Below, piece by piece: positions 36,288 through 62,939 of a stretch of 64,000 nt of DNA. Origin of the DNA: Candidatus Bathyarchaeia archaeon (GTDB lineage Archaea > Thermoproteota > CALKCG01 > B24); contig JAVZJD010000001.1 of NCBI GenBank assembly GCA_038870975.1, forward strand, positions 128,001 to 192,000, written 5' to 3'. Within the stretch, counting starts at the first letter, position 1. Every line of letters begins with the position of its first letter. Below the pieces are notes generated by a model. The model worked only from the letters and a program-made list of their open reading frames with translations, did not search any database and was not told where the DNA came from. The position numbers were made by a program, and so were the translations under genes.

Positions 36288-36434
36288 AATTTTTAATATT
36301 TACCGTTTGACACTTTAACTTTAACTCTTCAAATCGATCTCTGCCAACACTCCATTTTCACCACACACTTAATACGTCAAGATTTATATTGTTCTAATCT
36401 CTCCACCTATAGATAGCGGGAGGTCTGGTCTTAA

Positions 36435-36749
36435 CTGGGCAAGAGAAAAGTCATCAGCGAAGAAGAAATTAAAACTCTTGTACTACCTAGTCCAGGTGAA
36501 GTTTTAGGAATAGTTGAGAAGCTCCTCGGCTACGATAGGCTTGTCGTTCGATGCGTAGACGGACATACAAGATTGTGTAGAATTAGAGGAAAGATGAAGC
36601 GTAAAGTTTGGATTAAAGAGGGTGATGTAGTGCTCGTTTCACCTTGGGATTTTCAATCCGATGCTAGAGGAGATGTGACATGGCGTTACACGTATAATCA
36701 AGTAGACTGGCTTGCCAAAAATGGATACATTCCTCAAGACTGGGTGTAG
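36435..36749 (+). CDS. eif1a: Translation initiation factor aIF-1A (CTG start)
   Basis: Missing from the ORF track. Translates as (M)GKRKVISEEEIKTLVLPSPGEVLGIVEKLLGYDRLVVRCVDGHTRLCRIRGKMKRKVWIKEGDVVLVSPWDFQSDARGDVTWRY..., 104 aa. Canonical position upstream of rio1. Confidence 0.96.
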   Translation: MGKRKVISEEEIKTLVLPSPGEVLGIVEKLLGYDRLVVRCVDGHTRLCRIRGKMKRKVWIKEGDVVLVSPWDFQSDARGDVTWRYTYNQVDWLAKNGYIPQDWV

Positions 36750-36775: not shown

Positions 36776-37567
36776 TTGGAGAAAGAAGATTTTCTTAAAC
36801 ATGAGAAGAAACTTCTTCTTAGAGAAAAGAGATATATAGTTGAACAGCTTTTCAAAGTTAAACGCTCTGAAGAATATGAGGCTCTTGAGGAAGTTTTCGA
36901 TAAGCCTACTCTTTTAACTCTCTATAATATGATTAGACAGGGAACGATCTCTGAAATATATGGTGCTATTAAGGCTGGAAAGGAGAGTAAAATATTTTGG
37001 GCAAAGGGTCCGGAGAATGAAGACTTAGCTGTGAAAATCTACCTGACAGTCGCATCCGAGTTTAGAACAGGTATGCTTATGTATATAGAGGGTGATCCGA
37101 GGTTTAAAAACGTAAAGAGGGATCGGCGGGGACTTATTTATCAGTGGGCTCTAAAGGAATTTAAAAACCTTAAAGAAGCTTACGACTGCAATATAAGAGT
37201 GCCCAAACCTGTTACGGTTAAAAATAACATTTTAGTTATGGAGTTCATAGGACATAAAGGTGTACCAGCCCCACTTATAAAAGACGTTGAAATAAAAAAT
37301 CCAACAAGAATTTACAAGATGATACTGAACGACATTAGAAAGCTGTATAGGGAGGCTAAACTCGTCCATGGAGACCTCAGCGAATACAACGTCATGTATT
37401 GGAAGGGCTTACCTTACATGATAGATTTATCACAGGCGGTTTCACTCGACCATCCTCTAAGTCATGAGTTTTTGAAGAGGGATATTAAAAACATTAACAG
37501 GTTTTTTAGAAGACTAGGAGTTGATACTTTAGATGACGACGAGCTCTATGAATGGATAATTTCTTAA
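36776..37567 (+). CDS. rio1: RIO1-type serine/threonine kinase
   Basis: GKES, AVKIY, LVMEFIG, VHGDLSEYN, IDLSQAV. Confidence 0.95.
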   Translation: MEKEDFLKHEKKLLLREKRYIVEQLFKVKRSEEYEALEEVFDKPTLLTLYNMIRQGTISEIYGAIKAGKESKIFWAKGPENEDLAVKIYLTVASEFRTGMLMYIEGDPRFKNVKRDRRGLIYQWALKEFKNLKEAYDCNIRVPKPVTVKNNILVMEFIGHKGVPAPLIKDVEIKNPTRIYKMILNDIRKLYREAKLVHGDLSEYNVMYWKGLPYMIDLSQAVSLDHPLSHEFLKRDIKNINRFFRRLGVDTLDDDELYEWIIS

Positions 37568-39063: not shown

Positions 39064-39393
39064 GGGGGTGGCGGGTTAAGGATCGGGGAGCTAGCCCTGC
39101 CCTGTAACCCGAAACGGGCTATATGCGGGGATCCGTTAACCATCAAAGGCGGCAGCCTGAACAGCCAGATGAGGTTTCACAAGCTAACAATGAGGCTTCG
39201 TCTCGTAGGGCTCGGTTGGAGACAGCCTCCTTGAAGGAGGGGGTGGAGTCTCTCCACCGCCGAACCGGGTCAGGCCGGGAACGGAGCAGCCCTAAGGCGG
39301 GCAACCGAGCGTTTGCGAGGGCGCGGGGTTGAGAAGGCTTGTGAAATACTCGGGCTGGGAGGGTGTCCACTTTGATGGGATGCCGCCATCCCC
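39064..39393 (+). ncRNA. ffs: Archaeal signal recognition particle (7S) RNA
   Basis: GC-rich. 5' GGGGGUGGCGG pairs with 3' CCGCCAUCCCC. Alu UGUAA motif. Helix-5 pairs (CCAUCAAAG/CUUUGAUGG, UUUCACAAGC/GCUUGUGAAA, GCUCGGUUG/CAACCGAGC). Helix 8 CAGG-CCG-GGAA-CGG-AGCAG. Followed by a T tract. Confidence 0.95.
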
Positions 39394-62180: not shown

Positions 62181-62939
62181 TTATTGAACAGGAGATTTAA
62201 TGGTTTTTCGAACTCTGGCCCCTCTTCCAGCCTTCTTAGCAGCTATAAGTCCAACTTTAGCACCTGGTGGAGCGGTTTTGCTAACCGTTGATGGTTTACC
62301 TGGGTGTTGATGTCTACCACCACCATGTGGATGGTAGACGGCTGCCATAGCGACCCCTCTAACAGTTGGATATTTACGTCCTCTAGCCCTCATTAACTTA
62401 AGCTTTGCACCAGCCTTTAAAAATGGTTTTTCAATTCTACCTCCTCCAGCAACTACACCAATTGTTGCTCTACACATCTCATCTAATACTACAGTTTTAC
62501 CTGATGGCATTTTTACTACAACGCCATTGGATGTGTGCGCTAAAATTACCCCATAACTTCCAGAAGCCCTCAGAAGTTTACCCCCATCGCCGGGGTTTTT
62601 CTCAACATTACATACTATAGCACCATCAGGAATATCTGACAGGAATAGGGTATTTCCAATTTTAAATGAAGCTTTAGGTCCCATTTCGATAACATCATTA
62701 ACACCTAAACCCTCGCACGCAACTACATGATAACGTAAGCTGTTTTCGAGTTCTATTAATGCTAATGGAACGCCTCTGCCAGAGTCGTGGAGAAGATCTA
62801 TAACAACACCCTTAATTGGGCCATTTTCAGGCAAGATCGTTAAAGGTGGATATTTAGAGGGTGAAATTCTCCTATGAGTGGGCGCTGTGAAAGTTTGCGA
62901 GCCTCTACCTCTCCTTTGAACGAGAAGCCTTTTACCCAT
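62181..62939 (-). CDS. rpl2: Ribosomal protein uL2
   Basis: MGKRLLVQRRGRG, VRGVAM, HPHGGG, PPGAKVGLIAA. Start moved to ATG 62939. Confidence 0.98.
   Translation of the reverse strand: MGKRLLVQRRGRGSQTFTAPTHRRISPSKYPPLTILPENGPIKGVVIDLLHDSGRGVPLALIELENSLRYHVVACEGLGVNDVIEMGPKASFKIGNTLFLSDIPDGAIVCNVEKNPGDGGKLLRASGSYGVILAHTSNGVVVKMPSGKTVVLDEMCRATIGVVAGGGRIEKPFLKAGAKLKLMRARGRKYPTVRGVAMAAVYHPHGGGRHQHPGKPSTVSKTAPPGAKVGLIAAKKAGRGARVRKTIKSPVQ

Follow-up and report, generated by a model that had tools for sequence, protein, structure and literature searches.

The window analysed here is a 64,000-nt stretch of the genome of a Candidatus Bathyarchaeia archaeon. On its forward strand, positions 36435–36749 encode the initiation factor aIF-1A, with 104 codons followed by a TAG stop codon (36747–36749). 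The frame opens with CTG (36435–36437), continues as GKRKVISEEEI... from the second codon onwards, and is closed directly 5′ of the CTG by an in-frame TAA (36432–36434); a further in-frame stop is found at codon −7. The CTG stands where the conserved GKRKV N-terminus of aIF-1A has its Met, aligns with the ATG, TTG and GTG starts of orthologues, and is preceded, at a distance of 10 nt, by the Shine-Dalgarno (SD) sequence GGGAGGT (36418–36424, forward strand). From the TAA to the conserved N-terminus, the frame has no canonical start codon. The first one in frame is a TTG at codon 47 (36573–36575, forward strand), from which a truncated product of 58 aa would be made that lacks half of the OB fold, and the first in-frame ATG is codon 54; both lie inside the OB domain. 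Thus, no canonical start yields the full protein, and what the earlier note on this DNA had read from the letters (the TAA, the CTG at the Met position, the spacing of GGGAGGT and the want of a usable canonical start) holds in every detail.

The 104-codon product is a full-length member of the aIF-1A/eIF-1A family. It matches the Pfam eIF-1a profile PF01176 over residues 21–84 (E = 2e-24; 85.3 bits against a cut-off of 30.2), as well as NF003084 (E = 1e-40; 137.5 against 91) and TIGR00523 (E = 9e-35; 118.7 against 102.9), and the NCBIfam IF-1A models cover it from profile position 4 to the end. The gene is present in a single copy in the 1.85-Mb genome, which consists of two contigs (C1 and C2), and each of 40 relatives likewise gave one match. 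In the protein collection searched, neither the exact 104-aa product nor the exact 58-aa product had an entry. An open reading frame for a RIO-type kinase follows in the same direction (36776–37567, forward strand). This neighbourhood is conserved: RIO1 (PF01163) lies directly 3′ of aIF-1A in relatives, and the kinase orthogroup is present in 14 genomes. Elsewhere in the window, an archaeal SRP RNA (RF01857, 172.7 bits) lies at 39069–39388 on the forward strand, and uL2 lies on the reverse strand (62280–62663 and onward) together with uL3, uL4 and uL23 at the window end. Since uS19 lies about 4 kb further on, the long operon in which ribosomal-protein genes usually lie is broken up in this genome.

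The 16S rRNA of this organism ends in ...GGATCACCTCCT, with which GGGAGGT can form seven pairs, one of them G-U. GGAG-type motifs are found at a similar place in all relatives of the clade that carries the CTG. The spacing is long, with GGAGG starting at −16 before aIF-1A versus a genome mode of −12 to −14; SD use is widespread in the genome, and the aIF-1A spacing falls at the long end of the distribution but is workable. Further upstream, the TATA-box-like sequence TTTATATT (36383–36390, forward strand) is a probable aIF-1A promoter element, and the 13 loci examined from the CTG clade keep the motif GTTTATAT at 52–67 nt before the CTG. In the usual geometry of archaeal promoters, the TATA box is centred near −26. 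Given this geometry and the conserved position of the motif, GTTTATAT/TTTATATT would be the promoter of an aIF-1A mRNA with a leader of about 22–40 nt that contains the SD sequence. Several Nitrososphaeria relatives carry a TATA-like motif about 27 nt from the aIF-1A start codon, suggesting that their aIF-1A mRNAs are leaderless. The genome encodes one ordinary initiator tRNA, with A1:U72, three G-C pairs in the anticodon stem and the anticodon CAU. A search for an initiator-like tRNA with another anticodon found none, and tRNA-Leu(CAG) and tRNA-Thr(CGU) are ordinary elongators. Neither was a conserved RNA structure detected around the start codon: RNAalifold predicted no pairs, and the single-sequence fold had a z-score of 0.54. 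The 16S rRNA match itself (C1:504336–505972, reverse strand) spans 1637 nt, compared with 1478 positions in the model, and may hold an insertion or an intron.

The earlier note had proposed comparing aIF-1A start regions across related genomes, and had named a sequencing error, or ATG and TTG in relatives, as findings that would speak against its idea. We compared the locus across its GTDB order, which comprises 17 species genomes in four families (f1–f4). The aligned codon is CTG in all 13 genomes of families f1, f2 and f3. These genomes are of species level and come from different studies, and the related loci are mostly from hot-spring assemblies; a sequencing error is not what the independent assemblies indicate, since they agree on the same CTG. 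The four genomes of f4, all of a single genus, have ATG, TTG, GTG and GTG, and most other Bathyarchaeia have TTG. Among 80 further loci from Bathyarchaeia and Nitrososphaeria, the codon is TTG in 46 (two of which are without the Gly codon), ATG in 19, GTG in 9, CTG in 5 and ATC in 1, and the five CTG loci all belong to this same order. The canonical starts of f4 and of about 100 other loci share the alignment column of the CTG. Because TTG is the majority codon among the outer loci and CTG is confined to the order, the ancestral start was probably TTG, and CTG would be a retained T-to-C change.

In the other members of the genus, the codon before the CTG is TAG, TAA, or TAT with a stop 2–5 codons further upstream, with no canonical start in between. 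Other codons near the N-terminus could nevertheless act as extra starts in particular relatives, though not in the genome studied here. Two genus-mates carry GTG at codon 6. The sister genus (loci L006, L007 and L033) has an in-frame TTG eight codons before the CTG and about 27 nt past the TATA motif; public calls start there (112 aa), and this TTG may offer that genus, and no other, an alternative start, possibly a leaderless one. Two further loci are unusual. In a Bathyarchaeia metagenome-assembled genome (MAG) outside the order (L039, CAYYPV010000068.1), aIF-1A has an ATC start behind GGGGTGAGGGGAG, an independent non-canonical start. In a fragmented MAG of a genus-mate (G004, locus L012), aIF-1A is without 14 codons of the OB fold, leaving a 90-codon frame that may be an assembly artefact.

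Codons 2–46 of aIF-1A are under strong purifying selection, with pN/pS of 0.03–0.05 within the family and 0.20–0.25 between families, at pS values of 0.5–0.94 (half-saturation within the genus, with about 90% of synonymous sites changed between families). Codons 2–5 keep G-K-R/K-K in all relatives while their third bases vary. Given this selection, translation must begin at or before codon 2. As there is no canonical codon at or before that position, the CTG is the only start available in this genome. We then considered the first base of the codon itself, any substitution of which yields a canonical start. Yet the C is kept in all 13 genomes. Among the genomes of the CTG clade, none of 17 fourfold-degenerate sites in aIF-1A is invariant, and in 14 other orthologous genes only 3 of 496 are; pooled, 3 of 513 sites (about 0.6% of neutral sites) are unchanged, a figure that serves as a guide and not as a formal P value, owing to the kinship of the genomes. 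Start codons of other genes are labile: for Trm56, LeuD, uL2 and RpoF, and for aIF-1A itself in f4, the start alternates between ATG, GTG and TTG among members of one genus or family. With neutral sites saturated, other start codons labile and the C unchanged in 13 of 13 genomes, the C is under purifying selection, and a weak start seems to be selected.

We searched this genome for conserved genes with a profile-matched N-terminus upstream of the first canonical start, and aligned the candidates to the 16 other genomes of the order. Cases were accepted on full-length profile coverage and alignment with the canonical starts of sister taxa; a codon-usage coding score for the stretch upstream of first canonical starts discriminated weakly and was used for ranking candidates. 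Four genes start at CTG behind an SD sequence: a leuB-like dehydrogenase (C2:510929–511978, reverse strand) in six of six species of the genus, with TTG in the sister genus and GTG in f2; MCM (C1:770634–772658, reverse) in five of six genus members, with ATG in the sixth and GTG in the sister genus; a GPN-loop GTPase (C2:301863–302621, forward) across the genus, with TTG or ATG elsewhere; and aroA (C2:260727–262016, forward) in this species only, its genus-mates having GTG or ATG. CTG is a probable start for cdhD (C1:825801–826745, forward) and for an etfA-like gene (C1:916478–917467, forward), both on profile coverage and an SD sequence alone. Three genes have other codons at the start position. 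aMBF1 (C1:348094–348615, forward) has ATC in all eight f1 genomes and TTG or ATG elsewhere; eL21 (C1:257346–257633, forward) has ACG in the f1 and f2 genomes sampled and ATG in f3 and f4; and uL11 (C2:531725–532210, reverse) has TTA at the Met position across the genus, TTG in the sister genus and ATG in f2 and f3. The uL11 TTA, which mismatches AUG at two positions, sits 2 nt past the spt5 stop codon, and uL11 may be translated by termination-reinitiation coupling.

A sample of neighbouring genes that was not picked by start codon gave one more case: uS19 has ACG in three of three f2 genomes (L249, L255 and L257) and ATG in all other families of the order. With the ribosomal-protein cluster fragmented, this sample comprised about 10 orthogroups with a usable start column; the RIO, IDH2, Spt5, NMNAT, uL23 and PsmB groups were left out since their automatic start column fell on an internal Met. 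Non-canonical starts are nonetheless rare, at about 10 of roughly 1,700 genes. Consistent with this, SD sequences were not enriched before CTG codons genome-wide, where 5.6% of the CTGs upstream of the first canonical start have one, a figure equal to background, and there was no enrichment either when only long pre-start stretches were counted. We conclude that CTG does not serve as a fourth general start codon but is used in rare, exceptional cases; the noise of the SD test makes it unsuitable for counting them, and they were found singly by profile coverage and alignment. Family f4 has canonical starts only, in every gene examined, a comparison biased by the fact that this genome was where most cases were first found. 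By these alignments, the aIF-1A start is one case of a wider habit in which the order, and f1 especially, uses CTG, ACG, ATC and TTA in housekeeping genes, and no older non-canonical start has been found in the clade so far. The earlier note had counted common CTG starts elsewhere in the genome against its idea, and that is partly what we found: at least four other genes start at CTG and two more probably do, in addition to the ATC, ACG and TTA of aMBF1, eL21 and uL11.

Several explanations would dispense with initiation at a near-cognate codon. If mRNAs were subject to C-to-U editing, CUG would become UUG and ACG would become AUG, so that the starts that are translated would be canonical. Of the 10 unusual starts here, editing of this kind would rescue eight (the seven CTGs and the one ACG), as it would the ACG of uS19 in f2, and it fits a probable ancestral TTG in aIF-1A; however, the ATC of aMBF1 and the TTA of uL11 are beyond its reach, and the bias towards CUG and ACG has a simpler explanation, in that these are the best-tolerated near-cognates in eukaryote-type initiation. 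We know of no mRNA C-to-U editing in archaea, and consider this explanation very unlikely. Translation might instead begin elsewhere, whether further upstream, at codon 6 or at a canonical codon inside the gene; in various relatives, public callers have indeed picked the GTG of codon 6, the ATG of codon 26 or the TTG at −8. In this genome, however, codons 6 and 26 read GTC and ATA, respectively, and stops stand at −1 and −7; furthermore, codons 2–5 are conserved with synonymous changes in all relatives, and an internal start would remove part of the OB fold. A start elsewhere is therefore highly improbable. That the CTG reflects an error of sequencing or assembly, or a gene in decay, is next to inconceivable, given its presence in 13 species-level genomes from different studies and the strong purifying selection on a single-copy, essential gene.

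The earlier note had gone on to suggest that aIF-1A feeds back on its own translation. According to this idea, aIF-1A would set start-codon stringency and thereby act on its own CTG mRNA, as IF3 does on the AUU start of infC or eIF1 on its poor-context AUG. The persistence of the CTG under selection over three families is consistent with such a loop, and loops of this type exist for IF3, eIF1 and eIF5 (PMC3326321, PMC5472188). In addition, aIF-1A stands alone among the initiation-factor genes of this genome in its non-canonical start. The start is ATG in aIF1 and aIF5B and probably in aIF2-beta as well, and canonical starts are available in the other two: the aIF2-gamma frame opens with ATG, and in aIF2-alpha a TTG lies close to the 5′ end of the frame. 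(The aIF2-gamma match, at C1:668878–670047 on the reverse strand, lies inside a 1055-codon open frame, and the sequence preceding it ends in ...CHNT, which suggests an intein insertion.) As with infC and eIF1, the gene for the factor itself carries a suboptimal start that is conserved, but this start is not nearly peculiar to it: at least nine unrelated genes, with ribosomal-protein, replication and biosynthetic genes among them, have CTG, ATC, ACG or TTA, and a weak start is therefore no signature of a factor-specific loop. There is also no conserved RNA structure or other operator around the aIF-1A start. Moreover, the archaeal factor that rejects non-AUG complexes, by destabilising them, is aIF1 (PMC6237735), the gene for which has ATG here. 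Yeast eIF1A does influence near-cognate use, its basic N-terminal tail stabilising the closed complex and promoting near-cognate and poor-context starts (PMC5756025). If this property carries over to archaea, the feedback predicted is positive rather than homeostatic. We conclude that the earlier note was right about the CTG, which is real, conserved and selected, whereas a loop specific to aIF-1A finds no support in these comparisons and is unlikely. It is equally doubtful that the CTG is a selected control point that ties the aIF-1A level to start-codon stringency, in an order whose essential genes include several (those for eL21, uS19, uL11, MCM, the GPN-loop GTPase, aMBF1 and the leuB-like dehydrogenase, for instance) that depend on near-cognate starts. 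Such an arrangement would be an archaeal counterpart of the eIF1 and eIF5 stringency circuits.

Known systems resemble the aIF-1A start in part. Bacterial infC is likewise an initiation-factor gene with a conserved non-canonical start behind an SD sequence, and its AUU is repressed by IF3. However, aIF-1A is the homologue of IF1 and not of IF3, the known archaeal discriminator of start codons is another factor, and at least nine unrelated genes here also have an unusual start. In eukaryotes, eIF1 (poor-context AUG), eIF5 (upstream ORFs) and BZW1/2 are factors of the eukaryotic/archaeal type with a suboptimal start in their own mRNA (PMC3326321, PMC5823381). Those loops have been demonstrated experimentally and are based on scanning, whereas initiation on aIF-1A is SD-led; furthermore, the tail of eIF1A promotes suboptimal starts and does not reject them (PMC5756025). 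A third likeness is to the rare near-cognate starts of prokaryotes (CTG, ATT, ATC and ATA in NCBI table 11; GTC in Streptomyces sigR, PMC5472188), which are also SD-led, have a single mismatch and are canonical in orthologues. Unlike these, the aIF-1A CTG has persisted through the depth of three families in a gene that is both universal and essential, beside ribosomal-protein and other core genes with ACG, ATC and TTA.

The reading that we favour for these observations (the position of the CTG, its conservation, the constraint on its C and the other non-canonical starts) is that aIF-1A is made from the CTG at 36435, as a selected, weak, SD-led start within a lineage-wide habit of near-cognate initiation. 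We consider this likely. On this model, the duplex between the SD and anti-SD sequences would place the 30S subunit over the CUG, which the initiator Met-tRNA (CAU) would read with a first-position mismatch, and the protein would begin Met-Gly-Lys-Arg-Lys. The CTG would have arisen from TTG in the ancestor of the three families and would have been held by purifying selection. Initiation at this CUG would be inefficient, and the trait under selection is most likely a matter of dosage, the weak start and the long SD spacing together giving a low, fixed rate of aIF-1A synthesis.

We found no paper on Bathyarchaeia start codons or on a non-canonical aIF-1A start. The start codons given in reviews of archaeal initiation are AUG, GUG and UUG (PMC7531240), and in ribosome profiling of Haloferax about 30% of putative alternative initiation sites were near-cognates, which were set aside (PMC7261190). 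In public gene calls for relatives, the aIF-1A products are 99, 79 or 112 aa long instead of 104. The expectation that standard callers would miss or truncate the gene was accurate for calls of the Prodigal type, which truncate or extend it, but not for the NCBI annotation of two f3 assemblies (GCA_018396595.1 and GCA_018396395.1), which already starts aIF-1A at the CTG with Met. Lengths called wrongly in this way affect marker-gene sets and protein databases for Bathyarchaeia.

On our best reading, the CTG start of aIF-1A would be real, ancient and selected, a conserved near-cognate start in a tolerant lineage. A universal initiation factor would thus be made from CUG over the depth of three families, with the C under selection, as against the AUG, GUG and UUG that reviews list. 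What aIF-1A contributes to the set of non-canonical starts is a gene for an initiation factor, and a C whose constraint has been quantified. The genes described here provide a concrete set of natural mRNAs for probing the action of aIF1, aIF1A and aIF2 on near-cognate codons. More broadly, these comparisons suggest that archaeal lineages may differ in start-codon stringency, and that selection can favour weak starts.
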